Shown here one piece after another: positions 184-47,404 of a stretch of 64,000 nt of DNA. The position numbers were made by a program, and so were the translations under genes. Position 1 is the stretch's first letter, and the number at the start of each line of letters is the position of its first letter. This DNA comes from a virus (lineage: Duplodnaviria; Heunggongvirae; Uroviricota; Caudoviricetes). The stretch lies in the IMG/VR virus record IMGVR_UViG_3300023297_000003, one strand, 5' to 3'. The notes under the pieces were generated by a model. The model saw nothing but the letters and a program-made list of their open reading frames with translations, made no database searches and was not told where the DNA came from.

Positions 184-1416
184 CTAAACTAACCCAATCA
201 AGGACAAGCCTTGACTGGCGTTAGGTTCCTGCTTCACTGAGGATAGTTTCACCGGGTCCAAATGGACCAAGCCAGAGCTTTCCTCTCCACAGGCTGACAC
301 CGCCGAACTGACGGCCATATTTCTTAAATTACAAGCTGCGTTCTCATCACGATCCTGAATGTGCCCACAGGATACACAATGGAAAACCCGATCCCTCAAG
401 GTTAAGTTGTGCCTAACCTCTCCGCAAACTGAACACATTTTGGACGAAGGGAACCACCGATCTGCCTCTACGACTTCCCCACCGTGCCAGGCTACCTTGT
501 ACTTCAGACATCGAAGGAACTCTGACATACCAGCATCAGACAAAGCCCCAGCAAGGCAATGATTCTTCATCATTCCTGACACATTTAAGGACTCGATCCC
601 AACAACCGCACACCGTTTGGCTATCGCAGTGGTGGCCTTATGAGTCGCATCCCTACGAACACAGGAAACTCGATAATGCTGACGAGCAAGACGATGCTTT
701 GCTTTCCTCCGGTTCCTCGATCCCTTCCTCTTTCTGCTTACACCTTTTTGTAATCGCCGTAGACGTTGTGTTGCAGCCTTAAGTGCTCTGGGGTTCTCAA
801 AGACCGTACCGTCCGATAAGACAGCAAGAGACTTGATCCCAACATCAACGCCGAGGATTTCGGTTCCAACGGTCCTCTCGTTCTCTTCCTCAAGGGCTAA
901 CGAAACGAACCAACGCCCAGCTCTTTCGGAAACAGTAGCCCTCGTAATCTTAGCGCCTATTGGAACATATCCGTGCTCTTTCAGCCGAAGGTGGCCTAAA
1001 CGAGGAAGTTGAACGTGGGTCTCTGAAACGTGGATAGCGCCCGTCAGGGTAAAGGATCCGATGCCTTTACGTCGGCTCTTAAACCTTGGAAATCCCTTAC
1101 GTTTTGCTTTCGTTTTGCAACGACGGAAGAAACCATCGAAGGCTTTATCGAGGTTTCGTAAGGCTTCCTGCGGAGCGCACTTGGAAACCTCGTACATCCA
1201 AGGCATACCACCGTCATCTTTGGGAACTTTCTTAAGGGCATTCAATTCACGATGGAGGCTGATTGCCGAGGGAGATTTCTCTCCAGCTTTATGAGCCTCG
1301 ATCTTTCGTCCCAATCCCCAATTATAGGCCCGTCTGGCTGCTCCAGCGTGCTGAAACAACGACGTTCGTTGGACGTTGTTTGGGTCCAGTTCGGTCTTGT
1401 AAGCCCGTTGGATCAT
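184..1416 (-). CDS. tnpB: RNA-guided endonuclease TnpB (IS607-like)
   Basis: N-term RAYKTEL/HAGAARRAYNWGL, RuvC-I GVDVGIK, RuvC-II IESLNV, CSVC..CVSC Zn ribbon, DRDENAA. Confidence 0.95.
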   Translation of the reverse strand: MIQRAYKTELDPNNVQRTSLFQHAGAARRAYNWGLGRKIEAHKAGEKSPSAISLHRELNALKKVPKDDGGMPWMYEVSKCAPQEALRNLDKAFDGFFRRCKTKAKRKGFPRFKSRRKGIGSFTLTGAIHVSETHVQLPRLGHLRLKEHGYVPIGAKITRATVSERAGRWFVSLALEEENERTVGTEILGVDVGIKSLAVLSDGTVFENPRALKAATQRLRRLQKGVSRKRKGSRNRRKAKHRLARQHYRVSCVRRDATHKATTAIAKRCAVVGIESLNVSGMMKNHCLAGALSDAGMSEFLRCLKYKVAWHGGEVVEADRWFPSSKMCSVCGEVRHNLTLRDRVFHCVSCGHIQDRDENAACNLRNMAVSSAVSACGEESSGLVHLDPVKLSSVKQEPNASQGLSLIGLV

Positions 1417-7272: not shown

Positions 7273-7563
7273 CTAGCGGTGATCCTTCTCTACCCACTTG
7301 TCAACGGTTTCCCCGTCCAGGGTCAGGGACTTGATGCAATCCTCACCATCCCCGTCGATTCCCCCGATCATTAAACTCTCGTCCTTCAGGGTGCAGGAGT
7401 GGCCTACGCCGCCGCACCACTGGAGGTAACTCAGGATGTTGGTGATGCCTTTAGCCCCATTGCGGTTGCAGATGATCTGGATGACGGCTGCGTTCTCCAT
7501 GGTGTTGGGACACCCGTCTCCCGCTGCGAGCCATCGGGAGGCTATCCTCTGTGTGGCTGTCAC
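7273..7563 (-). CDS. Hypothetical protein (RIASRWL module)
   Basis: Coupled ORF; shared N-terminal motif. Confidence 0.6.
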   Translation of the reverse strand: MTATQRIASRWLAAGDGCPNTMENAAVIQIICNRNGAKGITNILSYLQWCGGVGHSCTLKDESLMIGGIDGDGEDCIKSLTLDGETVDKWVEKDHR

Positions 7564-17701: not shown

Positions 17702-17740
17702 TCCCCCCTCCTCACTACTACACTACCCCCAAAGGGGTCG

Positions 17741-17929
17741 TCAGTGTAGTAGAGGCTCCAGAACCTCTTTGTACCGAGGAAGGGACACCAGGAAGCGTTC
17801 TATTCTCCCACGGAGGACCCGGTCGTTGGGTGCCCGGCAACAATGCCCAAGTAGACCACGACGGTACCTCCCCAGATCCGGGTTGTCCCGAATCACCTGA
17901 GCCAGTCGAGGATAAAGGGTCAGCGCCAT
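17741..17929 (-). CDS. Hypothetical protein
   Basis: GGAGG RBS. Confidence 0.5.
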   Translation of the reverse strand: MALTLYPRLAQVIRDNPDLGRYRRGLLGHCCRAPNDRVLRGRIERFLVSLPRYKEVLEPLLH

Positions 17930-17974
17930 CTGGGGCCTCCTATTAAAGGAAGGGGATAGCGAGGAAAACGAATG

Positions 17975-18001
17975 GGATCATCGTCGGGGCATCCAGAGTA
18001 G
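17975..18001 (+). promoter_or_regulatory. Phage promoter GATCAT-N14-GAGTAG
   Basis: Exact motif. Confidence 0.7.
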
Positions 18002-18033
18002 TTACTGTTGAAGGGACGGGATGAAAAAAACCC

Positions 18034-18062
18034 TTGACATAGGGTTCCCACCCCGGTATCTT
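18034..18062 (+). promoter_or_regulatory. Sigma70-type promoter
   Basis: TTGACA-N17-TATCTT with upstream A-tract. Confidence 0.7.
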
Positions 18063-18070
18063 CTTTCAGA

Positions 18071-18395
18071 GAAGGAAGGTTTCCTTTTCGAGAGGTTGCG
18101 AATGAGTTTGGGTTTCAGCGGTGTGTTGAGTGTGATTGGGTCCGTAAGAGTAACAGGAAAGGTAAGACGTTCAAGTGTGGCAAATGTGGCTTCACCATAG
18201 ATGCTGTTTTGAATGTGGCTTCTAACTTGAAACTCGGTCTCTTTGAGATCCCATGGTGGGTGCGGCTAAGTTAAACAAACCGTAAAGGGTTCTTTTGGAC
18301 TTCTGATGGTTTGTTTAACGAAGGGCGGGAGCCTATAGTCCCCGCTACCATAAAAGACAATGAAAGCAAGAAATTGCTACAACATTGTTGACTAT
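18071..18395 (+). pseudogene. tnpB: TnpB 3' remnant (Zn ribbon, RuvC-III and omegaRNA region)
   Basis: FREVANEFGFQRCVECDWVRKSNRKGKTFKCGKCGFTIDAVLNVASNL; internal TAA; ends TGACTATC like the 21.6 kb element end TGACTAAC. Confidence 0.8.
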
Positions 18396-18456
18396 CTATG
18401 GCGTAACAGGGCAACCCCACCTGTGAGGATGCCCTGAGGATTGGAAGGAGACGATA

Positions 18457-18552
18457 ATGACCTGCTTGTTTACCACCTTAGAAGCCCGGACAGAGACGAC
18501 CAGTTGGTCGCTCTATCTGTCCGAGCGGACGCTGGGGGTGGCGGGCGAGTAG
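18457..18552 (+). CDS. Leader peptide of tRNA operon attenuator (31 aa)
   Basis: GAAGGAG RBS; MTCLFTTLEARTETTSWSLYLSERTLGVAGE*; directly before the terminator. Confidence 0.75.
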   Translation: MTCLFTTLEARTETTSWSLYLSERTLGVAGE

Positions 18553-18575
18553 CTCACCATAACGGGATCGAACCC

Positions 18576-18615
18576 GAAACCCCCCGGCGCTCAGGCTCCG
18601 GGGGGTTTCTTCGTT
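18576..18615 (+). terminator. Attenuator terminator with alternative antiterminator pairing
   Basis: GAAACCCCCCGG..CCGGGGGGTTTC then TTCGTT; GGGGGTGGCGGG (18535-18545) can pair with CCCGAAACCCCC. Confidence 0.8.
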
Positions 18616-18673
18616 CTGGAATGTTTGACAACGGGTTTAAGTGACCTGTAATGAGGACTATGAAGGTTAAATT

Positions 18674-18844
18674 TTCAGTTTTGGCGGTTAGTTCGACCGT
18701 GACAGCCTGTTGCCTTGGAAGCTCTGGCTCTGGTCATAAGATCGGAGTGAAACTACCGATTGGGCAGGAACTTAACTCTAATCAAGGGATGACCCTGATT
18801 AGGTCAGTTTAAGAGAACGGCTTCTCAGTGCCCGTAAAACTGAG
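18674..18844 (+). ncRNA. Candidate structured RNA
   Basis: Closing stem TCAGTTTTGGCGG/CCCGTAAAACTGA, internal hairpins, no ORF. Confidence 0.4.
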
Positions 18845-18902
18845 GCGGTCTTTGACAACTGGATGCCACGAGGGTGCTGGACGGCCACTCCAGCACCCTT
18901 AT

Positions 18903-18986
18903 GTCGGAATGGTGGAACTGGTAGACACGCTAGACTCAGGTTCTAGTGCCTTAAATGGTGTGAGGGTTCGACTCCCTCTTCCGGCA
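18903..18986 (+). tRNA. tRNA-Leu(CAG)
   Basis: Cloverleaf, long variable arm. Confidence 0.95.
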
Positions 18987-18990
18987 CCGA

Positions 18991-19190
18991 GGACGGCTTG
19001 AGAGGTGGAAAACCTGTTTGAGCTTCACCCATTTGTACGATGGGCGTCGGGGTATAAACTTGAGGAGACGCTGCTGAATTCAAAACAGGTCAGCGGCAAG
19101 GGGCCTTGATAAAACTCGACCTGCGTGGGTAACCAGTCCCACCCGTCCTGGCGGAGAGGAGACCGGGTGGGACTCCCGGCCTTCTCTCTA
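18991..19190 (+). ncRNA. Candidate structured RNA between tRNAs
   Basis: GGACGG/CCGTCC closure, T-arm-like CCGGG-TGGGACT-CCCGG. Confidence 0.35.
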
Positions 19191-19194
19191 GTAT

Positions 19195-19281
19195 GGTGGG
19201 GTGTGCCGAGCGGCGAAGGCAGCGGTCTGTAAAACCGTGACGTAAGAAACATCGTAGGTTCGACTCCTACCCCCACCACCA
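19195..19281 (+). tRNA. tRNA-Tyr(GTA)
   Basis: Cloverleaf with CCA. Confidence 0.95.
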
Positions 19282-19291
19282 TAAAGAGTAC

Positions 19292-19378
19292 GGAGGGGTG
19301 GGCGAGTGGTTGATGCCGACGCCCTGCTAAGGCGTTGTAGGGGAAACTCTACCGGGGGTTCGAATCCCCCCTCCTCCG
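19292..19378 (+). tRNA. tRNA-Ser(GCT)
   Basis: Cloverleaf, long variable arm. Confidence 0.95.
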
Positions 19379-19389
19379 CTTTGTCCTGG

Positions 19390-19497
19390 TCTGAGCCTGC
19401 CGGGTGTAGGGTACAAACCCTTGTCCCCTTCTGTGTCAATCCTGAACTATTACCCACGGATAGGACGATGCGGAACAGCGAGGTAAGGTAGGGCTCA
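19390..19497 (+). ncRNA. Candidate ~110 nt structured RNA
   Basis: TGAGCCTGCC/GGTAGGGCTCA closing stem. Confidence 0.35.
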
Positions 19498-19501
19498 TTT
19501 T

Positions 19502-19585
19502 GCGAACGTGGTGAAGGGGTAGACACGCTGCGTTGAGGGCGCAGTCCTGCTTGACGGGGTGTGGGTTCGAATCCCATCGTTCGCA
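19502..19585 (+). tRNA. tRNA-Leu(GAG)
   Basis: Cloverleaf. Confidence 0.95.
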
Positions 19586-19589
19586 CTAT

Positions 19590-19678
19590 GGAGGGGTCGC
19601 CTAGTCAGGCTATGGGCATCTGCTTGGAAAGCAGACGTGGGTGCAAGTCCACCGGGAGTTCAAATCTCCCCCTCTCCG
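19590..19678 (+). tRNA. tRNA-Ser(GGA)
   Basis: Cloverleaf. Confidence 0.95.
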
Positions 19679-20130
19679 CTGTCCGTTGGTAACCAACCGC
19701 TGCTCAAGGTGGTCGCCATCTGCTGACGACCTTCAGGTGTGCTGGCGAGTTCCCGTAGGAAGGAGGGGCTAGCAAGAACTCTCGTCAAATCAATCTCCCA
19801 AGTCTTGTCAAGACACTGGAAACCAATTCGACGTGTTAGGACATTGTCCAGGGGTTCAATGGTTTTGTCCGAGTCATCAGACAAAACAAAGGCTTGGATC
19901 TGTACCAGCATGTCGGTCAGATCCTGATAGAGTCCCTCGTCCCCTCGGTAGATCTGATCGGACTCCAGGTAGATTTCTTGACCACGACAAACGGTCACCC
20001 TTCGGATCTGTCCCTTTGATGTTAGAGTCAGTCTTGCGATGGCTTCACCTTTTCGAAAGGGTTTAACCGCTGTGATGGTCCAACCAATAAGTTTTGCTAG
20101 GGCCTCAGCAGAGGGGTTTTTGATGCTCAT
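19660..20130 (-). CDS. Hypothetical protein
   Basis: AGGAG RBS before MSIKNP; TRRIGF..PEGR motif shared with 47714-48286. Confidence 0.6.
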   Translation of the reverse strand: MSIKNPSAEALAKLIGWTITAVKPFRKGEAIARLTLTSKGQIRRVTVCRGQEIYLESDQIYRGDEGLYQDLTDMLVQIQAFVLSDDSDKTIEPLDNVLTRRIGFQCLDKTWEIDLTRVLASPSFLRELASTPEGRQQMATTLSSGWLPTDSGEGEI

Positions 20131-20180
20131 GGTTTTTGTCCTCCTGTCCAACAATACCCCGGACAGGTGAATTCCTTTAC

Positions 20181-20254
20181 GGGTGCGTAGCTCTAACTGG
20201 TAGAGCATCGGATTCCAAATCCGAGGGCTGGGGGTTCGAATCCCTCCGCACCTG
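20181..20254 (+). tRNA. tRNA-Trp(CCA)
   Basis: Cloverleaf. Confidence 0.95.
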
Positions 20255-20270
20255 CTGGTGTTCTTTCTAT

Positions 20271-20406
20271 GGCGGCGTGGGCAAACTGGTAAAGCCACAA
20301 GACTTAATCTTGTTTCGTAAAACATCGTTCCACACCTCGGACCCTGTCATGGGGACCAAACTGGGGAACAAACACGCACCTGGAGGTTCGAGTCCTCCCG
20401 CCGCCA
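20271..20406 (+). ncRNA. tRNA-Leu-like chimera with Y-RNA-like stem in the variable arm
   Basis: Acceptor, D and T arms intact; shortened anticodon loop CTTAA; insert GTTCCAC-ACCTC-GGACCC..GGGGAAC-AAACAC matches the 62 kb motif. Confidence 0.75.
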
Positions 20407-20416
20407 CCCACCTTTT

Positions 20417-20489
20417 GCCGGGGTAGCTCAACTGGTAGAGCGCCAGACCGAAAATCTGGGCGTAGGCGGTTCGACTCCGCCCCCCGGCA
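20417..20489 (+). tRNA. tRNA-Phe(GAA)
   Basis: Cloverleaf (C33). Confidence 0.93.
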
Positions 20490-20496
20490 CTCTTTT

Positions 20497-20571
20497 GCCC
20501 GGATGAAGGGAATTGGCATACCTCTAGCACTTAAAATGCTGGGTTTGGGGGTTCGACTCCCCCTCCGGGTA
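20497..20571 (+). tRNA. tRNA-Leu(TAA), short variable arm
   Basis: Loop CTTAAAA; no long V arm. Confidence 0.85.
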
Positions 20572-20575
20572 CTAT

Positions 20576-20659
20576 GCCAGGATGGTGAAGTTGGTAGACA
20601 CTCCGGTTTTAGGGGCCGGTGGGCTTCGGTCCGTGCGGGTTCGACTCCCGCTCCTGGCA
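20576..20659 (+). tRNA. tRNA-Leu(TAG)
   Basis: Cloverleaf. Confidence 0.95.
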
Positions 20660-20665
20660 CTTTGT

Positions 20666-20692
20666 GGATCATCTCAGGTTCCCCCAGAGTAG
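20666..20692 (+). promoter_or_regulatory. Phage promoter GATCAT-N14-GAGTAG
   Basis: Exact motif. Confidence 0.7.
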
Positions 20693-20714
20693 ACCTTGTG
20701 AAAGGAGGACTGGG

Positions 20715-21425
20715 ATGACGGACAAAGACATGTACCCATCGGATGAACTTGGACTGCTCCTAGCGGAGATCGGACCTGGCCACCCGTTGGCTTTGCGCCT
20801 CCAACGGATTCTCACAAACATCCAAGACAGGAAGGAGATCACCCAAGAGTTCGATTTCCTCACCAGTGAGGGTGCAACTGTTCGTGTGCTCGAACACCCC
20901 TGTGGGGAACACAGATGGTTCTTCGATTACCGTTTCATAGGGGCACGGGATCAAAAGCGCAAACCCGAGTCCGTGGTGGAGTGGAAGTGCCTGGTGGATT
21001 ATCGGAACGGCGTGCTGCAACCGTCACTCCAGATCAGCATGAACATTACGATTCCCAAGCTACTGGGGAAAAGGTTCCTTTTCGGGCTGGACCTCTCGCC
21101 GGGGGCCAAAACGTATTTCAATTTCACCTACGAGATGTGTGACGAAGACACCTTCCGGCTCGTTGAGATCCAAAAGGGGGCCAGAACCGTCATGGACCTC
21201 CGACCAATGTGGGCCGAAGAGGGTGAGGGCTTGATCCAGCAGGTAACACCCCCCTTCCCCCTGGTTGTACAGGAACGGATCCAGCGAGAGTACGAGAGTA
21301 AGGACCGGAAAACAGGAGAGACCCAATGGCTGGGGCGTTTCCGTGTACCCTTCCCCTACCGGGATCAGGAAGCCGGAATTGAGAGTGTGCATCACATCTA
21401 TTTTTCAGACAGTATTGTCCGATAA
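20715..21425 (+). CDS. Hypothetical protein
   Basis: AAGGAGG RBS. Confidence 0.7.
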   Translation: MTDKDMYPSDELGLLLAEIGPGHPLALRLQRILTNIQDRKEITQEFDFLTSEGATVRVLEHPCGEHRWFFDYRFIGARDQKRKPESVVEWKCLVDYRNGVLQPSLQISMNITIPKLLGKRFLFGLDLSPGAKTYFNFTYEMCDEDTFRLVEIQKGARTVMDLRPMWAEEGEGLIQQVTPPFPLVVQERIQREYESKDRKTGETQWLGRFRVPFPYRDQEAGIESVHHIYFSDSIVR

Positions 21426-21429
21426 TTCC

Positions 21430-21514
21430 GCCAACGTGGTGAAATTGGTAGACATGCAGCACCCAAAATGCTGTGGGCTTTACGCTCGTGAGGGTTCGAT
21501 CCCCTCCGTTGGCA
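21430..21514 (+). tRNA. tRNA-Leu(CAA)
   Basis: Cloverleaf (C33). Confidence 0.93.
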
Positions 21515-21521
21515 CCTTTGT

Positions 21522-21548
21522 GGATCATTTCTGGTCCCATCCGAGTAG
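21522..21548 (+). promoter_or_regulatory. Phage promoter GATCAT-N14-GAGTAG
   Basis: Exact motif. Confidence 0.7.
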
Positions 21549-21681
21549 ACAGTGTGTGAACCGTTGTCCCGGAAGGGATGGCCTGACGTGCCCGTATCCC
21601 GAACTGGTCAAGACACGCAGGTCAAAAGAGGGTGGACAATATGGTTAGTCAGAATGAACACATTCTGGCCTTAGCGACCTT

Positions 21682-22761
21682 TCAGGTCGTGCAGGACCGG
21701 GGGACCATAGACTCCCCGACGGCCCGAGCAAGGATGTTCACGCTGCCAACAAAGTCGGCATCGGCGGCGTACCCACACCGCACGCACACGAACTTCTCAT
21801 TCACTCGGTTGGATCTAGCCCGATGAGTACAGGAAGGACATATCTGCGAGGTGTACGCTGGATTTACTTCCACCCGTCGAACACGGTTCAGACGGGCTTT
21901 CCATTCAATCCGGCGCAGCACGTAGGCGTATGTCCAGGGGGCCAGAGCCCTGCGAAAACTCTTACCTCGATTGGGTTTCTTTCCCTTCTTGAGGTTTGTC
22001 AATTTTTCGACGGCCACCAACTGCAACTTATCCCAAGGCAGTTGATTCAACGTCTCATCAATGTATTGATCCCGAGCCCGTCGAGCACGGAACTTGCCCT
22101 TAGAACCGTTCTTACATCGGCAAACACGTCGCACATACTTAGACATATCAGCGCCGTAGATCTTCCCATCGGAAGTGGCGATAAGCTTGTTCAATCCGAC
22201 ATCAATGCCCAAGACAGTTCCTTGCTCCTTGAGGGCAAGGTCCGGAAGCTCCACCCAGAGGGTTACGAAGTAGACCCCTGCTCGACATCCGATAGCACAT
22301 CCACCCTTCAGTTTCGCCCCCGGCATAATCAACAGCTTTCTGAGGTGTCTGGTGGCCTTGAGAGGTACATTGATACAGTGCCTTCTGGAGAGAGTCGAGA
22401 AACGCATCCACAAATCGAACTCACTCGTCTCGGTGGCTTCTGTTATGGCAGCAAGCTGCTTAGACAAAACCATTGCCCCAGAAAACGCAGGACAGGTGGC
22501 CAGATTCCCCGTTTGGGCAGCGCTTCTTCGTGTGGCCGCTACAATGCCGAGCGCCTGTTGGAGCGCATGCCCCCTCATCCGAAACGTCAGGTGACCAAGA
22601 GGAACGACGTCAGCGGTTGCTTTGTTAAGGCTACCGCCATAACTCCAGATGTGCTGAATATAGGCGTTGACGGTAGCACGGTAGCGGTCAAGAACGGCCA
22701 CGATCTTCGCCACTTTCGAGACGCTGGCAAACTTCAACGAGAGCTTGGTTGACGCAATCAT
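21682..22761 (-). CDS. tnpB: RNA-guided endonuclease TnpB
   Basis: GIDVGL, VEKL, PAYTSQICPSC, CVRC, DADFVGSVNI; start MIASTK after TTGACA-N17-TATACT. Confidence 0.93.
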   Translation of the reverse strand: MIASTKLSLKFASVSKVAKIVAVLDRYRATVNAYIQHIWSYGGSLNKATADVVPLGHLTFRMRGHALQQALGIVAATRRSAAQTGNLATCPAFSGAMVLSKQLAAITEATETSEFDLWMRFSTLSRRHCINVPLKATRHLRKLLIMPGAKLKGGCAIGCRAGVYFVTLWVELPDLALKEQGTVLGIDVGLNKLIATSDGKIYGADMSKYVRRVCRCKNGSKGKFRARRARDQYIDETLNQLPWDKLQLVAVEKLTNLKKGKKPNRGKSFRRALAPWTYAYVLRRIEWKARLNRVRRVEVNPAYTSQICPSCTHRARSNRVNEKFVCVRCGYAADADFVGSVNILARAVGESMVPRSCTT

Positions 22762-22986
22762 GGATAGAGTATATGCCGAAGAAATTGGTCTGTCAATTTT
22801 TGACGGGGAATTAAAAAAGAGGGTCAGGTTATGTCCATAAGGACCGGAAATGAAGGAACCTTTGCAACGCCGCAAGGCATGTTGGTGTCTCATACTCAAA
22901 GGCACAACACTAGTGGGTACTACTCGACGCCCAAACCCCTCGGATACGGTTGGAAGCCCGAACGGTTCACACTGATGGAGGTTCCA

Positions 22987-23201
22987 TGGCGAAACCAACG
23001 AAGAGGCAACGGGAACTGCGGGAAGCCGCTGACCGTTTCGATGCGTGGTTTGGCACGGGGACCGAAGGCTCCCGGTCATGTCGCCGGGGTGCCCGCCGGA
23101 TCGATGCAAGGAAGCGTGCCCAGTTCCACCACACGAGAGGAACATGGCGGGACGCAGTGAGAGCTTCACAGGAGGGATCATCTCCGTCCCCGTCCGAGTA
23201 G
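22987..23201 (+). CDS. Small basic hypothetical protein
   Basis: GGAGG RBS, MAKPTKRQREL. Confidence 0.5.
23175..23201 (+). promoter_or_regulatory. Phage promoter GATCAT-N14-GAGTAG
   Basis: Exact motif upstream of ncRNA/tmRNA block. Confidence 0.7.
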
Positions 23202-23254
23202 ACAGTGTGAGCCGTAACCCCGGAAAGGATGACATGACGAGGTGACTGTGTTAT

Positions 23255-23383
23255 GGGAAGGGTGGTCTAGTAGCCGAGTGGCTCCCGAGTAGCGCACTCA
23301 GGGGTTGCGGAGCAGGCAAGGACACTCGTTGGGGACCGGACAACCCTGCAGAGAGGTCGGTGGTTCAAATCCATCCCCTTCCC
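23255..23383 (+). ncRNA. tRNA-like RNA with expanded D loop and anticodon arm
   Basis: GGAAGGG/CCCTTCC acceptor, GGTGG-TTCAAAT-CCATC T arm, G-1:C73. Confidence 0.7.
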
Positions 23384-23395
23384 CTAGTGTTTGTT

Positions 23396-23847
23396 CTTTG
23401 AAGCATCGAACGGGAGTATTGACCGGAGTCCGACATAGCGCCGAAAGGAGCCGTGTGGGGTACTTGACAGCACCCGATTTACTTACTAAAGTTTAACTAT
23501 TCCTGCTTGAAACAGGAAGCTGTTGTGGCAGGGAGGCTCACGCTGATTGGGTGGGAGGTTCTGGTGTGCCCAGATGTTCTGGGGGTGAACACATTGGTAC
23601 TAACGATCACCCACGAGGCGTAAAACGAGTGCTGAGAGAGCGATTCCGTCTTCGACGGACCAGTTCCTTGGGATTCGGACGGCAAGAGCAACCGTCATCC
23701 GAGCCTTTACCGTTGGGCCGGAGGCTTACTACCGAGGCACTTGGGTTACCAAGGATCGGCACAGCTTCAAACTTGATGCCTGTTACATTAGCAGGTTTTA
23801 AGGAACGGTGAGGAAGTCAGTCGATATTCCCGTTCGGTGCTTCAGAG
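23396..23847 (+). ncRNA. Large (~450 nt) structured RNA, unassigned
   Basis: 28-bp terminal helix with 4 G-U wobbles; many internal hairpins. Confidence 0.7.
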
Positions 23848-23862
23848 TGTTCTTTGACTTTT

Positions 23863-24237
23863 GGGGGCGCACTGGTTTCGACTGGGAAGTTGGAAGCCGT
23901 TACTGCGTGCCAGCGGATGTCTCAAACCGCTGTGATCAAATGGGGCGACTTTTAATTGCCAACACTCCTGTTGCAATGGCTGCGTAAAAACCCCAGCCCG
24001 GAAGACCTGGAAAGATTGTGACCCGGACCCTTCCGCCGATTATTCGATCTGCTGCCTGAAGACCTGACCCACAGGGCTGAGGGAGACAAGACAAACGTGG
24101 GATGCCTAATGGACACTTCTGGCAAGGGTGATGTCCTGACTGGCGAGAGGGGGTGACCCCAAACACTCCGGCCAACGCATGTGTAGATGTAGCGAGTGAC
24201 CCTTCTCAGGACTTCGGTTCAATTCCGAACGCCTCCA
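23863..24237 (+). ncRNA. ssrA: tmRNA
   Basis: GGGGGCG..GGTTTCGAC 5' end, tag ANTPVAMAA* (23958-23987), T arm and CGCCTCCA 3' end. Confidence 0.95.
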
Positions 24238-24282
24238 CTAAGTACCTGATTTCATTGGCTTTTTTGCGCTGTAGGGGTCAAC

Positions 24283-24699
24283 ATGTCAAATCCGAGAGTG
24301 TTCCTGGGTGGCACCTGTGCCAAGGGCACATCGTGGCGGGAGAAACTGATCCCGCAGTTAATGATCCCCTACTTCAACCCGGTGAATCCCCATTGGGACG
24401 AGGCGGCTCGGCTCCGGGAGTTGGAGGAACGTGAGACCTGCGCCTTTTGCCTCTACGTCATCACGCCGAAGATGCAGGGGTTCTACTCCATCGCTGAGGT
24501 GGCAGACGATTCCAACAAGCGCCCGGAAAAGACGATCTTCTGCTTCCTCCCTGAGGACGGTGACGAGACCTTCACGAGGAAGCAGTTGTACTCGCTGAAG
24601 GAAGTCGGCAAGCTGGTCGCCAGGAACGGGGGCATCTGGGTCGAGTCCCTGGAGGCTGTTGCCGCAGTCCTGAACGGCACGAAGACGGATAGTAGCTGA
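24283..24699 (+). CDS. Nucleoside 2-deoxyribosyltransferase-like protein
   Basis: VFLGGT..WR..FNP..YSIAE motifs. Confidence 0.75.
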   Translation: MSNPRVFLGGTCAKGTSWREKLIPQLMIPYFNPVNPHWDEAARLRELEERETCAFCLYVITPKMQGFYSIAEVADDSNKRPEKTIFCFLPEDGDETFTRKQLYSLKEVGKLVARNGGIWVESLEAVAAVLNGTKTDSS

Positions 24700-24929
24700 T
24701 GTTCATCGATGTAGAGATCGCCTTTGACCCCAAAGCCCATGTGGGAGCTAGGGTTGCTCTGGACGACAAGGAGGGGACCATCACGGAGGGATCCGGTGCT
24801 GGTTTCACGGTAGAGTTCGATGACGGAACGACGTTGGTTACCCGATGGGCCGAATTGGCTGAAAGGGCACTACGCCCCGTTAGCTCAGTTGGCAGAGTAA
24901 CCCCTTCGATCTTTGCCGGGATCACCTAA
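24699..24929 (+). CDS. Hypothetical protein
   Basis: Coupled ORF. Confidence 0.5.
   Translation: MFIDVEIAFDPKAHVGARVALDDKEGTITEGSGAGFTVEFDDGTTLVTRWAELAERALRPVSSVGRVTPSIFAGIT
24874..24908 (+). pseudogene. 5' half of a tRNA (Thr-like), truncated in the anticodon loop
   Basis: GCCCCGTTAGCTCAGTTGGCAGAGTAACCCCTTCG then unrelated sequence. Confidence 0.75.
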
Positions 24930-24993
24930 TGAACCCCACACCCATTTGCATTTGCAGGGTGCTCGCCGTACACTAGGCACGGAGGGCAAAATT

Positions 24994-25617
24994 ATGGGTA
25001 TGACTCGTTCTGAAGCTGGTCGACTAGGGTACCAAAAAACGAAATCCACTATGCAAGCTCACCGGAACGAGGACACACGCAGGGCAAAACAAAAATGGGA
25101 AACCGAAAACAAGTACTGTCCCCAATGTGGTAAACGGATACCATATGAAAAACGGGCAAACTTGTTTTGCAACCATTCTTGTAGGGCTTCCTTTCACAAC
25201 AAGGGGGTACGTCGTCATGGGAAGGCCCATTTTTGCCTCTCGTGCGGCAAACCTGTACGGCGGAAATTCTGCAATAGACAGTGCCAGACCGATTTCAGGT
25301 ATCAGCGTGATGTGTCCTCCTGGTTGGCTGAAGAGATCACAGGCATCAAAGCATACGGTCACAGTGTGTGTCGGTTTGTGCGTAGATGGGTTCAGGAACG
25401 AGATGGAGTTAAGTGTTCTGTTTGTGGTCTCCAAAAGTGGCTGGGAGAACCTATCCCCCTCGTGTTGGATCACGTTGATGGTGACTTTTTAAACACCCGT
25501 CCAAAAAACTTACGTCTGGTTTGTGGTAACTGTAACATGCAGCTACCTACGTTTGCAGGTAGAAATCGTGGGAACGGAACCAGACCGAAAAGAATCTTTC
25601 TAACACGGCCCGAGTAG
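24994..25617 (+). CDS. HNH homing endonuclease
   Basis: Zn fingers; LVLDHVDG..NLRLVCGNC; stop lies inside the tRNA. Confidence 0.9.
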   Translation: MGMTRSEAGRLGYQKTKSTMQAHRNEDTRRAKQKWETENKYCPQCGKRIPYEKRANLFCNHSCRASFHNKGVRRHGKAHFCLSCGKPVRRKFCNRQCQTDFRYQRDVSSWLAEEITGIKAYGHSVCRFVRRWVQERDGVKCSVCGLQKWLGEPIPLVLDHVDGDFLNTRPKNLRLVCGNCNMQLPTFAGRNRGNGTRPKRIFLTRPE

Positions 25618-25678
25618 TGTAAAGGTAGCATTGTGGTCTCGTACTCCGCAGGTAGAGGTTCGAATCCCCTCTCGGGCT
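25608..25678 (+). tRNA. tRNA-Thr(CGT)
   Basis: Cloverleaf, loop CTCGTAC. Confidence 0.88.
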
Positions 25679-25713
25679 CTAATGGTTCTTAATCTTAAAC
25701 TGAGAGGTGGCCT

Positions 25714-25923
25714 ATGACATTGGAACTGGTACGGAACAAGGATCGGAAGTTTGGGGCCGATCCTGAGTTCCTGCGGCTCAAACTGGCAGACGGGGGCTTC
25801 CTCCTGTTCACCGAGGAACAGGTGGCCGACGCCAAGGCGAGGGCGGAAGCCAACCCCGAAGATTGCCTGGATGTCCGGGATGTCGTCAGCAACGATTTCT
25901 GGCGCTCTATCCTCGGTCTCTAG
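25714..25923 (+). CDS. Hypothetical protein
   Basis: GAGG RBS. Confidence 0.6.
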   Translation: MTLELVRNKDRKFGADPEFLRLKLADGGFLLFTEEQVADAKARAEANPEDCLDVRDVVSNDFWRSILGL

Positions 25924-25927
25924 TTAC

Positions 25928-25999
25928 GTCCCTGTAGTGCAGCGGTTAGCACGCTGGCCTTTCAAGCCGGTATCACGGGTTCAAATCCCGTCAGGGACA
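25928..25999 (+). tRNA. tRNA-Glu(TTC)
   Basis: Cloverleaf. Confidence 0.93.
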
Positions 26000-26009
26000 C
26001 TTTTGATCC

Positions 26010-26080
26010 GCCCCGCAAGCATTGTGGCGATGTACCGGCCTTGTACACCGGGGAGTAGGGTTCAAATCCCTGGCGGGGCT
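26010..26080 (+). tRNA. tRNA-Thr(TGT)
   Basis: Cloverleaf. Confidence 0.9.
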
Positions 26081-26250
26081 CTGGGGCGTTTACACTGATC
26101 CCTTAACCAGGGAGGGTGCCCTGACGGAAGAAGCCCACAGGGAGGCTGTCAGGACACCTTCGGGGCGCACGGGTACACCGTAGAGTTCTGCCCCCCGGAG
26201 TGTACCGCAGAGTCCTGCCCCAGTTGCCAGGATGCCAAGCCCTGCAACTA
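26081..26250 (+). ncRNA. Candidate structured RNA
   Basis: CTGGGGC/GCCCCAG closure with several long hairpins. Confidence 0.4.
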
Positions 26251-26287
26251 AGCTCTCTTCTCCCTTAGTTTTGATTCGATTAAATCA

Positions 26288-26359
26288 GCCGGAGTAACTC
26301 AGTGGTAGAGTAGTTGCATGGTAAGCAACAAGTCGAGGGTTCGACTCCCTCCTCCGGCT
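26288..26359 (+). tRNA. tRNA-Thr(GGT)
   Basis: Cloverleaf. Confidence 0.95.
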
Positions 26360-26363
26360 CTAT

Positions 26364-26438
26364 GTCCCTGTCGTCCAGCCAGGTCTAGGACACTGGTTTC
26401 TCATGCCAGTAACTCGGGTTCAAATCCCGACAGGGACA
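26364..26438 (+). tRNA. tRNA-Glu(CTC)
   Basis: Cloverleaf. Confidence 0.95.
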
Positions 26439-26493
26439 CTACGTTGCCCTCCTTCGGAGTAGATCTCAGTGAGACTATTTGCGGAGGTGTGGC

Positions 26494-26913
26494 ATGAGCG
26501 GTATTCGTGTGGAAAACGAGGACTGGTGGGGCACACACATGATGACGGTCCCGACTGTTCCCGAGACTGAAGCTTGGGCCTATCAGTATGGGAACCGGAG
26601 GTTCCGTGCCAACTTCGACTCCTTCGATGAGGCCGCATCGTACCTGATGCAAACCCCCGGTTTGATCGACGGCCTCATCGCCCCGTTCCAGGCGATCCTT
26701 CACAGCCGCAATGCCAAGGGCTGTGCGGAGTCCATGACGAAGGAAGCCGGGTTCTCTGTGTGGGCTGCAGATGGCCGCATCGTCCACAGGTTCCTCGTGA
26801 GGGACTTCAAGGACCGTTGTGTTGCCTACATGGATTACGAGGATGGGAGGAACGTTCTGGTTCGAGGGGACGTGGGCTGGAAGAAGGTCAGTCCCTCTAG
26901 AAACGGCCCTTGA
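26494..26913 (+). CDS. Hypothetical protein
   Basis: GGAGG RBS. Confidence 0.65.
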   Translation: MSGIRVENEDWWGTHMMTVPTVPETEAWAYQYGNRRFRANFDSFDEAASYLMQTPGLIDGLIAPFQAILHSRNAKGCAESMTKEAGFSVWAADGRIVHRFLVRDFKDRCVAYMDYEDGRNVLVRGDVGWKKVSPSRNGP

Positions 26914-27319
26914 CGGCGAGGCGGCAGCCCCACTCGGCTTTGACGATGTCTTTGATGATGTCAACATCCATCTCAGTGACACCCGCCGGAAAGACGATGG
27001 CTACAGTCACCCCGAGGCCGTCCTCCACCATTACGGGGTAGCGCTTGGTGTTACGCTCGCCTACCTCAGCGGACAGCAGTTCTTGTTCTACCCCCGGAGC
27101 GTCACGGGTTATTTGGAGGATTGCTTTTTTCACGGTATCGGCTGACTCTCGGTGAGACAACAACTCCCCGAGAGTCAGGATGGTATCACCCTGGTTACGG
27201 AGAACAGCATAACGAGTGCCAATCCCTTTGGCGGTCCTCTTCAGCAGGGGCACAAGGTGCTCCTGAAGCTCGGGGTGTGCCTTTGCCAACCGAACCACCT
27301 TTGCTCTCAGTGTACTCAT
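26897..27319 (-). CDS. Hypothetical protein with LRxxxVxLAxxHPE module
   Basis: MSTLRAKVVRLAKAHPELQEHLVPLLKRTA. Confidence 0.7.
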   Translation of the reverse strand: MSTLRAKVVRLAKAHPELQEHLVPLLKRTAKGIGTRYAVLRNQGDTILTLGELLSHRESADTVKKAILQITRDAPGVEQELLSAEVGERNTKRYPVMVEDGLGVTVAIVFPAGVTEMDVDIIKDIVKAEWGCRLAVKGRF

Positions 27320-27375
27320 CTGGAAACCTCCAACTGATAGGCACAAAGGAGTGGTTATAGGCAGCGTATTGATAC

Positions 27376-27465
27376 GGAGAGGTGTCCGAGTGGTTGAAGG
27401 TGCTGCTCTCGAAAGGCAGTGTGGGTGCAAATCCACCGGGGGTTCGAATCCCCCTCTCTCCGCCA
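27376..27465 (+). tRNA. tRNA-Ser(CGA)
   Basis: Cloverleaf with CCA. Confidence 0.95.
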
Positions 27466-27504
27466 TAGTCTCATTATAGGTCTTCCCCGAGTAGGGGGTG
27501 TCCT

Positions 27505-27816
27505 ATGGTACGACTTGTTCTCTTAGTGCTGTGTTTCTCCTTTGTGTGTTCTCCAGCAGCGGCGCAAAAGGAACCCCTTCCCGTGTCCGTGGTCATCGTC
27601 ATCCCTTGTGCGCCGCCCCCGGAACCAGGGGATCCGCCGGACCCCGACATCCAGAACATCCAGGAGCAATTCCAACAGGTCCAGATGGCCCTTGATGATC
27701 TGGACGCTCTTGATGATCTGGATGATTTCGACCCTCAGTTGGATGAGTGGGGCGAACAACCCGACGACCTGGATCTGTACATGGACGAGCAGGTTGATGC
27801 TCTGGGGGGTGACTGA
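27505..27816 (+). CDS. Secreted acidic protein
   Basis: Signal peptide ending AAA; D/E-rich. Confidence 0.55.
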   Translation: MVRLVLLVLCFSFVCSPAAAQKEPLPVSVVIVIPCAPPPEPGDPPDPDIQNIQEQFQQVQMALDDLDALDDLDDFDPQLDEWGEQPDDLDLYMDEQVDALGGD

Positions 27817-28343
27817 TGGCGCTGAACAAGAACGAACCTGAGTCCTGTGACTCCATCAACATCCCGACCAAGTCTGTGAAGAACATCGCCGCACTCGTAG
27901 CGGCTGTCCTTGCCTTGCTGGGTGTGGGTGGTCAGTACGCCGGGTTTGGTCCTAACAAGACCGTGGACCAGAGCCAGGTCGACCTGTCCGTCCGCTCTTA
28001 CATGGAGGAGTGCATTGAAGAGGCCATGGATGAGGTTGACACCAAGGTCGCCAAAGAATTGGAGATCGTGGCGGCCCAGAACTCCACGATGGTCCTCACG
28101 AACATAGGCATATCCCGGAGGGCCGTCGACACCAAGTTGGAACGGGAGATCGACAAAATGTCGGAACGGATCGCCCGGATCGTGGCTGTGGTCAAAACCG
28201 CAGTGGCAGGGGTAGAGAAGTCCGTGATCCTACAAATAGGCCAAACGAACAAGGACGTTGCTCGCCTCCTGGAGGAGAACAAAGACCTCAAGCTCCGGGT
28301 GAGAAAGCTGGAGGAGCAACTTCCGTTCTCACATAACCCATAA
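27816..28343 (+). CDS. Membrane-anchored coiled-coil protein
   Basis: One TM helix plus coiled coil. Confidence 0.65.
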   Translation: MALNKNEPESCDSINIPTKSVKNIAALVAAVLALLGVGGQYAGFGPNKTVDQSQVDLSVRSYMEECIEEAMDEVDTKVAKELEIVAAQNSTMVLTNIGISRRAVDTKLEREIDKMSERIARIVAVVKTAVAGVEKSVILQIGQTNKDVARLLEENKDLKLRVRKLEEQLPFSHNP

Positions 28344-28446
28344 CTTGTGGTATGATCAGGGTGTCCGGGTCGGCTACACTCCCTTTGCTGGGGGAAGGGA
28401 AACCGGATCTGAGGAGGTCGGTGCGCCGACTATGGCCTCCACCCTT

Positions 28447-28536
28447 GGAAGCGTCGCCTAGTGGCTGAGGGCACTGGCCTTGAAAGCCAGCGACGGGGCA
28501 ACTCGTCCGAGGGTTCGAATCCCCCCGCTTCCTCCA
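28447..28536 (+). tRNA. tRNA-Ser(TGA)
   Basis: Cloverleaf with CCA. Confidence 0.93.
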
Positions 28537-37051: not shown

Positions 37052-37118
37052 CTACTCTAGGGAACAACAAGATGATCCTGGAAAGTCCGTGGGATCATCT
37101 GTGGACCCCCCGGAGTAG
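37052..37118. promoter_or_regulatory. Back-to-back divergent phage promoters
   Basis: Motif on - (37052-37078) and on + (37092-37118). Confidence 0.75.
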
Positions 37119-47375: not shown

Positions 47376-47402
47376 CTACTCAGGGGGTGGTTCAGATGAT
47401 CC
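47376..47402 (-). promoter_or_regulatory. Phage promoter GATCAT-N14-GAGTAG
   Basis: Exact motif. Confidence 0.7.
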
Positions 47403-47404
47403 CA

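Follow-up and report, generated by a model that had tools for sequence, protein, structure and literature searches.

Leader-peptide attenuators of the trp, his, leu, thr and ilv operons share a geometry in which regions of the leader RNA pair as 1:2, 2:3 or 3:4, and a ribosome that terminates at the leader stop codon covers region 2. The leaders of ilvGMEDA (Ile/Leu/Val), thr (Thr/Ile) and ilvBN (Val/Leu) consist of a short translated ORF rich in operon-related codons, mutually exclusive 1:2, 2:3 and 3:4 pairings and a terminator ahead of the structural genes, and sense more than one amino acid. The phage leader described here is proposed to be like them in all of these respects, but it would control tRNAs rather than biosynthetic enzymes and samples seven amino acids (~15 isoacceptors), where they sense two or three. 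In addition, its sensor codons lie in a loop within helix 1:2, whereas theirs form a run inside region 1, and a boxA-like element follows the phage terminator. The pheST operon of E. coli (pheM leader) is also under leader-peptide attenuation and, as proposed here, the attenuated gene belongs to the translation machinery and its product increases the supply of the charged tRNA that is sensed; in that cellular, non-viral system, however, the gene encodes an aminoacyl-tRNA synthetase and a single amino acid, Phe, is sensed. T-box riboswitches, too, attenuate transcription according to the state of a particular tRNA and regulate genes related to translation, but their ligand is uncharged tRNA, which a conserved RNA of 200-300 nt binds directly with neither ribosome nor ORF involved.

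No account of tRNA genes under leader-peptide control turned up in a literature search. The multi-isoacceptor leader sensor that a first-pass annotation of this DNA had put forward, as something for which it knew of no earlier description, was likewise absent from the literature searched. The organization of the locus suggests that it is probably a ribosome-mediated (leader-peptide) transcription attenuator that gates a phage array of Leu/Ser/Tyr/Trp/Phe/Thr/Glu tRNA genes.

Leader ORF and tRNA array in the window

The window, i.e. the whole 64,000-nt stretch of DNA analysed, comes from a giant salt-lake phage. Four features define the candidate transcription unit:

18034..18062, plus strand: sigma70-like promoter (TTGACA, 17 nt, TATCTT; promoter scan, 10/12) from which the leader and the tRNA array would be transcribed
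18443..18450, plus strand: Shine-Dalgarno (SD) sequence GGAAGGAG, with AGGAG 6 nt 5′ of the leader ATG (18457; direct sequence reading)
18457..18552, plus strand: leader ORF of 31 sense codons plus TAG (18550-18552), encoding the peptide MTCLFTTLEARTETTSWSLYLSERTLGVAGE
18903..28536, plus strand: tRNA array under the proposed control, 17 tRNAs and a tmRNA (ARAGORN, Rfam)

The leader is ~170 nt long and self-contained. The ribosome-binding site, the 31-codon ORF and the strong terminator after it are all present where the first-pass annotation had placed them. Its count of 21 codons for Thr, Leu, Ser, Glu, Phe, Trp or Tyr among the 25 codons from 2 to 26 also holds (the exceptions being Cys, Ala and two Arg), as does its statement that the 17 tRNAs downstream carry exactly these seven amino acids (Leu ×5, Ser ×4, Thr ×3, Glu ×2, Tyr, Trp and Phe by ARAGORN, between 18903 and 28536). 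The leader samples 15 of the 17 array anticodons, and only tag (codon CTA) and tga (codon TCA) are unsampled, in agreement with the same annotation. The array itself is broken up in the window by mobile and other genes; the Thr, Glu and two of the Ser tRNAs are found 7-10 kb downstream, on the far side of inserted genes, among them a tnpB on the minus strand.

Residues belonging to the seven-amino-acid set (in-set residues) make up 73% of the leader, a proportion reached by none of 13,102 thirty-residue segments taken from the 45 long ORFs of the window, for which the maximum is 67% and the mean 33%. This enrichment is confined to the frame of the ORF; the other five frames are not enriched and contain stops. 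Both strands of the window were also scanned for ORFs of 18-55 codons that have after them a hairpin at least as strong as -16 kcal/mol with a U-rich tail, and a tRNA on the same strand no more than 600 nt away; the leader ORF was the sole return.

Homologous leaders and mobile insertions

Ten further distinct homologues (11 with the window) were identified in uncultured giant-phage contigs of 2.3 to 536 kb, one of which, G001, is a complete 435.8-kb genome. They provide the leader and terminator pairs ahead of tRNA arrays that the first-pass annotation had proposed looking for in related phages. All 11 leaders are found between a GroEL-like gene region and the same Leu/Ser/Tyr/Trp/Phe/Thr/Glu array. 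The first, loose homologue pattern returned mostly chance matches, which were filtered by ORF length. A blastn search of GenBank phages with 17700-18900 gave no match, and neither a search of viral contigs with a single GroEL-like protein query nor one with an exact 24-mer of the terminator returned anything.

The promoter lies 423 nt upstream of the leader ATG in the window and ~60 nt before the ATG in L124, a 90%-identical homologue, and the first tRNA follows the leader stop codon after 351 nt in the window and after ~150 nt in the uninterrupted L124. The distances in the window are due to two TnpB-derived insertions, of which the first-pass annotation was unaware:

18063..18396, plus strand: first insertion, a multi-copy miniature mobile element (TnpB C-terminal remnant and omega-RNA-like structured tail)
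18620..18818, plus strand: second insertion, a decayed remnant of another TnpB element (3′ end), located after the terminator and ahead of the boxA-like block

Over the first insertion the contig depth rises from ~56 to up to 770, with loose ends at 18062 and 18395/18396. When translated, 18062-18271 matches Pfam Cas12f1-like_TNB (E=1e-5; 26.1 bits, just under the cut-off of 26.3), and the insertion has a strong predicted fold (z=-7.8). The second insertion shares 78% identity with the 3′ end of an intact tnpB (184..1416, minus strand), and its 53-codon ORF (18651-18812), which has no Pfam match, is a homologue of the C-terminal tail of that TnpB. A reading of this ORF as a small lipoprotein was dropped, the ORF being a decayed TnpB C-terminal tail; 18270-18450 was also dropped as a part of the regulator, as it belongs to the inserted mobile element (absent from L124; depth rise). 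L124 carries neither insertion and, judged from sequence comparison, neither is part of the ancestral attenuator.

A strict promoter scan upstream of the leader gave matches in 7 of the 11 homologues, and the remaining four have, by eye, a TTGACA-like hexamer with a hexamer starting TA 17 nt on. Between the stop codon and the first tRNA, the promoter scan found no sigma70-like promoter in any of the 11.

The leader frame is open in 11/11 homologues (31-34 codons) and begins with ATG or GTG at a position that is constant in the alignment. The SD sequences of L124 and L045 are as good as that of the window, while those of about half of the homologues are weak. Regions 1 and 2, which form helix 1:2 (see below), have cores separated by 64, 67, 70 or 76 nt, the phase remaining constant and the length changing by multiples of three. 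The leader of the window differs from that of L124 by an in-frame 6-nt insertion (Thr, Ser) and an Ala to Thr change.

In-set residues account for 67-81% of each leader. Between regions 1 and 2 they reach 127 of 143 residues (89%) vs. 33.7% in the proteome, and the last seven residues of the leader, which encode region 2, are at background (29% in-set). The middle segments between the arms have a median pairwise identity of only 36%, i.e. the middle of the peptide drifts in sequence and holds its amino-acid composition. Each leader contains one or two Trp, one Tyr and at least one Phe, plus Ser, Thr and Leu.

For synonymous codons, the 15 anticodons sampled in the window compare with 12.5 expected by synonymous resampling (P=0.03). 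Isoacceptor sampling is above expectation in 6/6 complete arrays, with P values of 0.007-0.07 in five and of 0.17 in L129, the latter computed before a missed tRNA-Ser(gct) was added. The CTA codon, read by tRNA-Leu(tag), is unsampled in 5/6 complete arrays. In L129, the array has no tRNA-Glu and the leader has no Glu codon; the same leader contains six AGC codons, matched by the tRNA-Ser(gct) that ARAGORN overlooked.

In G001, a second, complementary tRNA array is preceded by a promoter, an SD sequence, a 50-codon ORF and a terminator, and the second leader peptide contains all 13 amino acids of the second array and few from the first set. In this complete genome, the 20 amino acids seem to be shared out over two arrays, each with a candidate sensor of its own. 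Composition tests on the candidate second leaders of G001 and L126 are low-powered; the set covers ~70% of a normal proteome. The first-pass annotation had proposed testing whether leader codons track the tRNA set in relatives; the outcome is positive, given the in-set fractions of 67-81% and the absence of Glu from both leader and array in L129. Tracking of the array by the leader is weakly indicated, by one informative case (Glu, L129) and the low-powered second-leader test.

Alternative RNA structures and a boxA-like block

The RNA of the leader and of the region up to the first tRNA contains six candidate elements:

18460..18479, plus strand: region 1, 5′ arm of the long-range helix 1:2 (codons 2-8, core CCACC; minimum-energy folds, RNAalifold consensus, pair counts)
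18529..18552, plus strand: region 2, G-rich 3′ end of the ORF (ACGCTGGGGGTGGCGGGCGAGTAG), partner of region 1 or region 3 (folds, RNAduplex)
18567..18590, plus strand: region 3, C-rich 5′ arm of the terminator and antiterminator partner of region 2 (RNAfold, RNAduplex)
18576..18618, plus strand: intrinsic terminator, stem 18576-18587 with 18598-18609, loop and tail UUUCUUCGUUCU (RNAfold)
18850..18858, plus strand: boxA-like block CTTTGACAA, candidate Nus-factor antitermination site (sole match in the window)
18872..18898, plus strand: hairpin with stem GGGTGCTGG / CCAGCACCC and loop ACGGCCACT, its end 4 nt short of the first tRNA

The leader region folds far better than shuffled sequence (z=-5.8), and the sensor codons of the ORF sit between the two arms of helix 1:2. 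This helix occurs in the minimum-energy folds of 9/9 homologues folded and in the RNAalifold consensus. For helix 1:2 and the terminator, pair counts over nine aligned homologues give 87% of cells paired vs. 79% when shuffled and 48-64% when slid, and 0/500 shuffles attain 87%. Both helix arms are conserved in nucleotide sequence, third codon positions included. The GGTGG core of region 2 is found 13 nt before the stop codon in 9/11 homologues, a spacing at which the position of the stop codon suits masking of region 2 by a terminating ribosome. A helix 1:2 enclosing the sensor codons was absent from the account given in the first-pass annotation.

The core stem of the terminator is a 12-bp GC stem (RNAfold), and the extended hairpin (18566-18616) has a folding energy of about -30 to -32 kcal/mol. 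A simple consensus terminator scan did not list the hairpin at 18576..18618, because the stem has an inner mismatch and the T run is interrupted. A terminator hairpin is present in 11/11 homologues (-18 to -42 kcal/mol in the ten other than the window) and begins 13-23 nt past the stop codon in the nine measured; the tails are U-rich, yet the U tracts are interrupted in several homologues.

Complementarity between the last codons of the ORF and the 5′ arm of the terminator, already described in the first-pass annotation, is borne out: GGGGGTGGCGGG and CCCGAAACCCCC match at 10/12 positions, with a 2-nt internal mismatch, and the 2:3 duplex of the window reaches -29.5 kcal/mol (RNAduplex). A 2:3 duplex is possible in 9/9 homologues tested (-17 to -30 kcal/mol), where it beats composition-matched shuffles in every case (P 0.003 to 0.30), and cognate 2:3 pairs have a mean of -23.6 vs. 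-22.1 kcal/mol for non-cognate pairs (permutation P=0.04). The pairing is largely that of a G run with a C run, and covariation specific to the antiterminator is weak. In equilibrium folding, the terminator wins at any ribosome position in most homologues, and the equilibrium ribosome-position model yields a switch in just two homologues, L133 and L132, with a slight one in L127 and L045. Of the alternative folds, helix 1:2 and terminator 3:4 are conserved and 2:3 is possible, but 2:3 does not win at equilibrium and has little preference for its cognate partner. With the terminator favoured at equilibrium, the switch would therefore have to be kinetic, as in the trp operon.

Two other identities for this region were rejected. 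Rfam has no match in 18200-18900 at E<=1 for a T-box or another known cis-regulatory RNA, and at GGGATCGAACCC, similar to a T arm in reverse and considered as a tRNA-like element on the minus strand, both ARAGORN and Rfam find nothing.

The boxA-like block is present between the attenuator terminator and the first tRNA in 11/11 homologues, with TTGA[CA]AA invariant; the first-pass annotation had overlooked this element. The consensus across homologues is nCTTTGACAAnT, the boxA reference being rrn UGCUCUUUA plus an ACAA spacer. A hairpin is found at the same place in all of the other homologues; its stem sequences differ, i.e. it covaries, and the loop contains GCCAC or GCCAAC in eight homologues. 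The E. coli rrn boxA-spacer, ugcucuuuaacaauuua (PMC2724277), is similar to the phage block, CTTTGACAA(T), and is matched by eye at 13/17 positions in L002 and at 9/14 in the window. Like the boxA of rrn and lambda nut sites, where NusB/NusE are loaded, the phage block is situated in the leader transcript of a long stable-RNA operon that is not translated, and just as boxB comes after boxA in nut sites, a hairpin comes after the block. Unlike them, the phage block has G for A at position 9 and a variable upstream GC; the stem of its hairpin is longer and the loop (GCCAC) differs. New here is the presence of such a block and covarying hairpin ahead of the first tRNA and after the terminator, and the two would probably make polymerase resistant to termination. 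The TTGACAA block could also act as a promoter of a non-standard type, in which case the array would no longer be coupled to the leader; a standard second promoter with TTGACAA as its -35 was set aside, since a -10 element 16-18 nt after the block is found in 0/11 homologues.

Proposed mechanism and rival explanations

In the proposed mechanism, transcription would start at the sigma70-like promoter, with polymerase crossing a TnpB-derived insertion before the leader in the window, and a ribosome would load on the 31-codon leader, in which region 1 (codons 2-8) is predicted to be able to pair with region 2. Helix 1:2 would enclose ~15 codons, nearly all for Thr, Ser, Leu, Phe, Trp, Tyr or Glu and spread over nearly every synonymous codon. 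With all cognate charged tRNAs plentiful, the ribosome would reach the stop codon and cover region 2, allowing 3:4 to form and transcription to terminate. Termination would also be expected without translation, because region 1 then holds region 2. If any sensor codon is slow, the ribosome would be on region 1 or in the loop and region 2 would be freed from region 1; the freed, G-rich region 2 could then pair with the C-rich 5′ arm of the terminator once this is made, giving read-through. Polymerase past the terminator would meet the boxA-like block and hairpin and then transcribe the tRNA genes. The outcome would be feedback on tRNA supply, the array being on when the pool is short and off once phage tRNAs fill the pool.

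Parts of the evidence could also be read without a translated sensor. If the region were a non-coding structured 5′ leader of the tRNA precursor, acting in processing, stability or antitermination with an incidental ORF, a fold far above that of shuffled sequence (z=-5.8), conserved nucleotide sequence in both helix arms and SD sequences that are weak in several homologues would all be expected. This is nevertheless the least probable of the readings weighed here: the frame is open in 11/11 homologues from a start codon at the same aligned place, length changes between the arms are all multiples of three, the composition bias is frame-specific and restricted to the stretch between the arms, and Rfam families have no match in the region. 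A free-standing gene for a 31-34-residue peptide, with the array transcribed from the TTGACAA block and the composition match a coincidence of a Ser/Thr/Leu-rich low-complexity peptide, is very unlikely as well. The conserved ends of the peptide (xxLFTT at the start, SLY..E..GVA near the end) and the exact -35 consensus TTGACA speak for such a gene, but these ends are the two RNA helix arms, where third codon positions are also conserved, and the middle keeps its composition rather than its sequence, every leader having Trp, Tyr and Phe besides Ser, Thr and Leu. Moreover, 0/11 TTGACAA blocks have a -10 element at 16-18 nt, and the covarying hairpin after the block, which appears to be selected as RNA, would not be fully transcribed from a promoter there.

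The remaining alternative accepts a genuine attenuator, but one that reports amino-acid supply, aminoacylation or general translation speed, with the match to the array existing at the amino-acid level only. Classical attenuators sense charged tRNA, and at the sequence level its abundance and its charging are indistinguishable; the amino-acid-level match is far stronger than the synonymous signal (P 0.007 to 0.17 per genome), and CTA/tRNA-Leu(tag) goes unsampled in 5/6 complete arrays. Against this, the controlled genes are tRNAs rather than biosynthetic enzymes, extra tRNA is the sole output that could relieve a stall, and isoacceptor sampling goes beyond expectation in 6/6 genomes tested; we regard this alternative as unlikely. 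The preferred reading remains an attenuator that senses isoacceptors and gates the tRNA array.

We lean, if only slightly, towards a broader form of the preferred reading, a homeostatic tRNA-supply controller in giant phages, in which each array would lie behind a translated sensor with codons for nearly all isoacceptors of that array, a shortage of any one of these would open the gate and the boxA-like site would add processivity. The shortage may come from a mismatch with host codon usage, from decay of host tRNAs or from anticodon nucleases; that anticodon nucleases in particular trigger the array is speculation. The idea is directly testable with small reporter constructs, and the leader could be put to use as a compact device, taken from nature, that senses tRNA or codon-specific stress in translation.

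If true, the proposal would take ribosome-mediated attenuation beyond amino-acid and synthetase genes to the genes for tRNAs, and would raise the number of amino acids sensed to seven, from one to three. The leader also provides a sequence signature for tRNA-array transcription units in uncultured phages, and the proposal bears on why large phages carry dozens of tRNA genes and on when these are used: such a phage would measure the decoding capacity of its host codon by codon and top it up on demand.

Leader region of the window and its relatives

The window derives from a large phage genome in a salt-lake metagenome, has a G+C content of 55.5% and carries 31 tRNA genes and one tmRNA in 64 kb. 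The mini-ORF and strong terminator described by the first-pass annotation are both present, and the 17 tRNAs downstream carry exactly the seven amino acids in which the leader is rich ('the set'), as it had claimed.

Features of the leader region in the window
16127–17701 (−): GroEL-like gene, adjoining the leader
18063–18396: insertion 1, a 334-nt miniature mobile element directly 3′ of the leader promoter's −10 hexamer
18443–18450 (+): Shine-Dalgarno sequence GGAAGGAG, upstream of the ATG at 18457
18457 (ATG) to 18550–18552 (TAG) (+): leader ORF, 31 codons
18576–18587/18598–18609 (+): core stem of the GC-rich terminator hairpin (about −30 kcal/mol), with tail UUUCUUCGUUCU
~18620–18818: insertion 2, a TnpB-derived remnant 3′ of the terminator and 5′ of the boxA-like block
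18850–18858: boxA-like block CTTTGACAA, with no second such site in the window
18872–18898: hairpin before the first tRNA
18903–28536 (+): array of 17 tRNA genes, only Thr, Leu, Ser, Glu, Phe, Trp and Tyr

Relatives of the GroEL-like gene (~40–55% identical) occur in many metagenomic contigs. Their contexts were fetched and collections then scanned with patterns from the first matches, giving ten further distinct leader homologues, so that leader and terminator pairs do precede tRNA arrays in related phages.

Loci of leader homologues
L124: ~90% identical to the window
L001, L002, L003, L127 and L129: metagenomic contigs
L045: same sequence as L122 and L125
L078: same sequence as L123; within G001, a complete 435.8-kb genome with terminal repeats
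L132 and L133: contigs of 520 and 536 kb

All share the order promoter, mini-ORF, GC hairpin, TTGA[CA]AA block, second hairpin and tRNA-Leu, followed by an array of the same kind (Leu, Ser, Tyr, Trp, Phe, Thr and usually Glu).

Compared with L124, the leader region of the window contains two insertions, and this tRNA-array leader has thus been struck twice by TnpB-derived elements. Insertion 1 contains a TnpB C-terminal remnant (Pfam Cas12f1-like_TNB, E=1e-5) and a strongly folded, omega-RNA-like tail. Its insertion point is immediately 3′ of the −10 hexamer (leader promoter: TTGACA, 18034; TATCTT, 18057), so that 423 nt now separate the promoter from the ATG. The element is flanked on both sides by the pentamer TATCT and is multi-copy, with other flanks, in salt-lake metagenomes (contig depth rising from ~56 to up to 770), other copies diverging exactly at 18062 and 18395/18396. 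Insertion 2 has 78% identity to the 3′ end of a tnpB (184..1416, −; 410 residues) that lies intact at the start of the window; a 53-codon ORF within it is the decayed tail of that TnpB, and its reading as a lipoprotein was rejected. Leader, terminator and boxA-like block were all left unbroken, and the leader sequence is invariant in contigs from other samples. Separately, a ~30–40 nt repeat (GGATCATC..N..CC.GAGTAGAC) was seen at 20660–20700, 21516–21556, 23169–23209, 37090–37118 and 47376–47404, immediately 3′ of two tRNA-Leu genes and flanking a tnpB (21682–22800) on either side, and a similar motif precedes the leader promoter in L124 and in the window (~17990). The repeat may correspond to the ends of elements or to a site of recombination or processing.

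Leader codons and the tRNA set

The codon counts of the first-pass annotation are correct: the seven amino acids of the array account for 21 of 25 leader codons (2–26), which sample 15 of its 17 anticodons. None of the 30-residue windows from the 45 long ORFs of this phage is as rich in the set, the other five reading frames at the leader show no enrichment, and a blind scan of both strands of the window for mini-ORFs that have a strong hairpin, a U tail and a tRNA close by matched the leader ORF only. The pattern is not due to chance.

Comparison of the homologues suggests that the leader is read as codons. The frame is open in all 11 (31–34 codons; start ATG, GTG in L132), the cores of the two conserved helix arms (codons 2–8, region 1; last codons, region 2) are 64, 67, 70 or 76 nt apart in constant phase, and GGTGG lies 13 nt ahead of the stop codon in nine of the 11. 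Between the arms, median identity among ten non-redundant peptides is only 36%, while set residues make up 127/143 (89%) versus a proteome value of 33.7%; over the final seven residues, encoding region 2, the share is at background level (29%), and the bias is limited to the ORF frame. An in-frame insertion, ACG TCA (Thr, Ser), and a replacement of GCC (Ala) by ACT (Thr) set the window leader apart from that of L124, and each adds set residues.

Leader codons also appear to track the tRNA set, a correspondence that the first-pass annotation had put forward as a check, with leader and array matching at the amino-acid level in 11/11 homologues. The only relative without tRNA-Glu in its array, L129, has no Glu codon in its leader. 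Its six AGC codons seemed unmatched until a tRNA-Ser(gct) was located (7317–7404, −), missed by ARAGORN and matched in Rfam only via the tRNA-Sec model (32.5 bits), with anticodon loop CUGCUAA. When codons were resampled from each phage's own usage with the peptide fixed (six complete arrays), 10.4–12.8 sampled anticodons were predicted versus 12–15 observed, an excess in the same direction in all six (P 0.007–0.17).

Leader folding and the block before the first tRNA

In minimum-energy folds of nine homologues, codons 2–8 (core CCACC) pair with the last codons (core GGUGG), and this helix 1:2 encloses the sensor codons, with the terminator (regions 3 and 4) separate. Both helices are retained in the RNAalifold consensus, and pair counts on the alignment give 87% paired cells versus 79% when shuffled (0/500 reach the observed value) and 48–64% with partners slid. 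The antiterminator geometry of the first-pass annotation, G-rich region 2 paired to the C-rich terminator 5′ arm, is possible in 9/9 homologues tested (−17 to −30 kcal/mol) and in each exceeds composition-matched shuffles. However, this pairing is mostly G run against C run and non-cognate partners are almost equal (P=0.04), and therefore no antiterminator-specific covariation is claimed. With a ribosome placed at successive codons in an equilibrium model, the terminator persists in most homologues, a clear switch appearing only in L133 and L132. Any switch would have to be kinetic, with region 2 capturing region 3 before region 4 is synthesized; the same applies to the trp operon, whose terminator is likewise the more stable structure. 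Because the sensor codons occupy the loop of helix 1:2, a ribosome pausing anywhere between the arms would presumably keep region 1 from retaking region 2, an arrangement that would suit a many-codon sensor.

The core of the boxA-like block, TTGA[CA]AA, is invariant and in the same place in 11/11 homologues. As TTGACA is the −35 consensus, a non-standard promoter is a possible reading; no −10 hexamer was found 16–18 nt 3′ of the block in the 11 homologues, and a strict promoter match lies upstream of the leader in seven. The block is also similar to the boxA and spacer of E. coli rrn (ugcucuuuaacaauuua; PMC2724277), the L002 version being CGCUCUUUGACAAUCUG. The hairpin that follows has equivalents at ten other loci, 4–20 nt ahead of the first tRNA; its stem differs among phages and covaries, and the loop is GCCAC or GCCAAC in eight homologues. 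Its role may be that of a processing signal or of a protein-binding site resembling boxB. Since a hairpin selected as RNA would have to be transcribed from upstream, i.e. through the attenuator, we lean towards reading the block as a putative nut-like antitermination site, at which polymerase would be made processive over the long untranslated array.

Second arrays and known leaders

G001 has a second array on the opposite strand (Asn, Asp, Pro, Lys, Val, Arg, Gly, Ile, Met, Ala, Gln, Cys, His and Glu), and L126 presents a comparable case.

Features ahead of the second arrays
L130 (in G001) 16293–16075 (−): candidate second leader with TTGACA-16-TATCAT, Shine-Dalgarno sequence, 50-codon ORF and good terminator
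L130 16074–15667 (−): HNH endonuclease gene, inserted after that terminator and ahead of CTCTGACAAGTGAATAG, which nearly duplicates the boxA-like block
L126 8135–8016 (−): candidate second leader, 39-codon ORF behind TTGACA-17-TAAAAT

The 50-codon ORF encodes each of the 13 amino acids specific to the second array and few of the first set, a combination met in only 0.2% of proteome windows. The L126 ORF likewise has all 13 and lacks Leu, Trp and Tyr; next come a hairpin lacking a U tract and a CTTTGAAAA block with its own hairpin, after which the array opens with His, Asn, Asp and Lys. Both are consistent with tracking of the tRNA set, the tests being post hoc, low-powered and short of proof.

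An Rfam search gave no match to T-box or any other family at the leader. Leader-peptide control of tRNA genes of this sort was not found described in the papers searched, and we know of no such control. The comparative evidence supports the attenuator first proposed, and the best explanation is that the leader probably acts as a sensor of tRNA supply. The proposed mechanism is classical ribosome-mediated attenuation, for which the nearest cases are the multivalent ilv and thr leaders and the pheST leader, the last also governing a translation component, as this one would. In contrast to these, the target here would be phage tRNA genes and the breadth seven amino acids and ~15 isoacceptors, with sensor codons inside the loop enclosed by helix 1:2 and a boxA-like element 3′ of the terminator.
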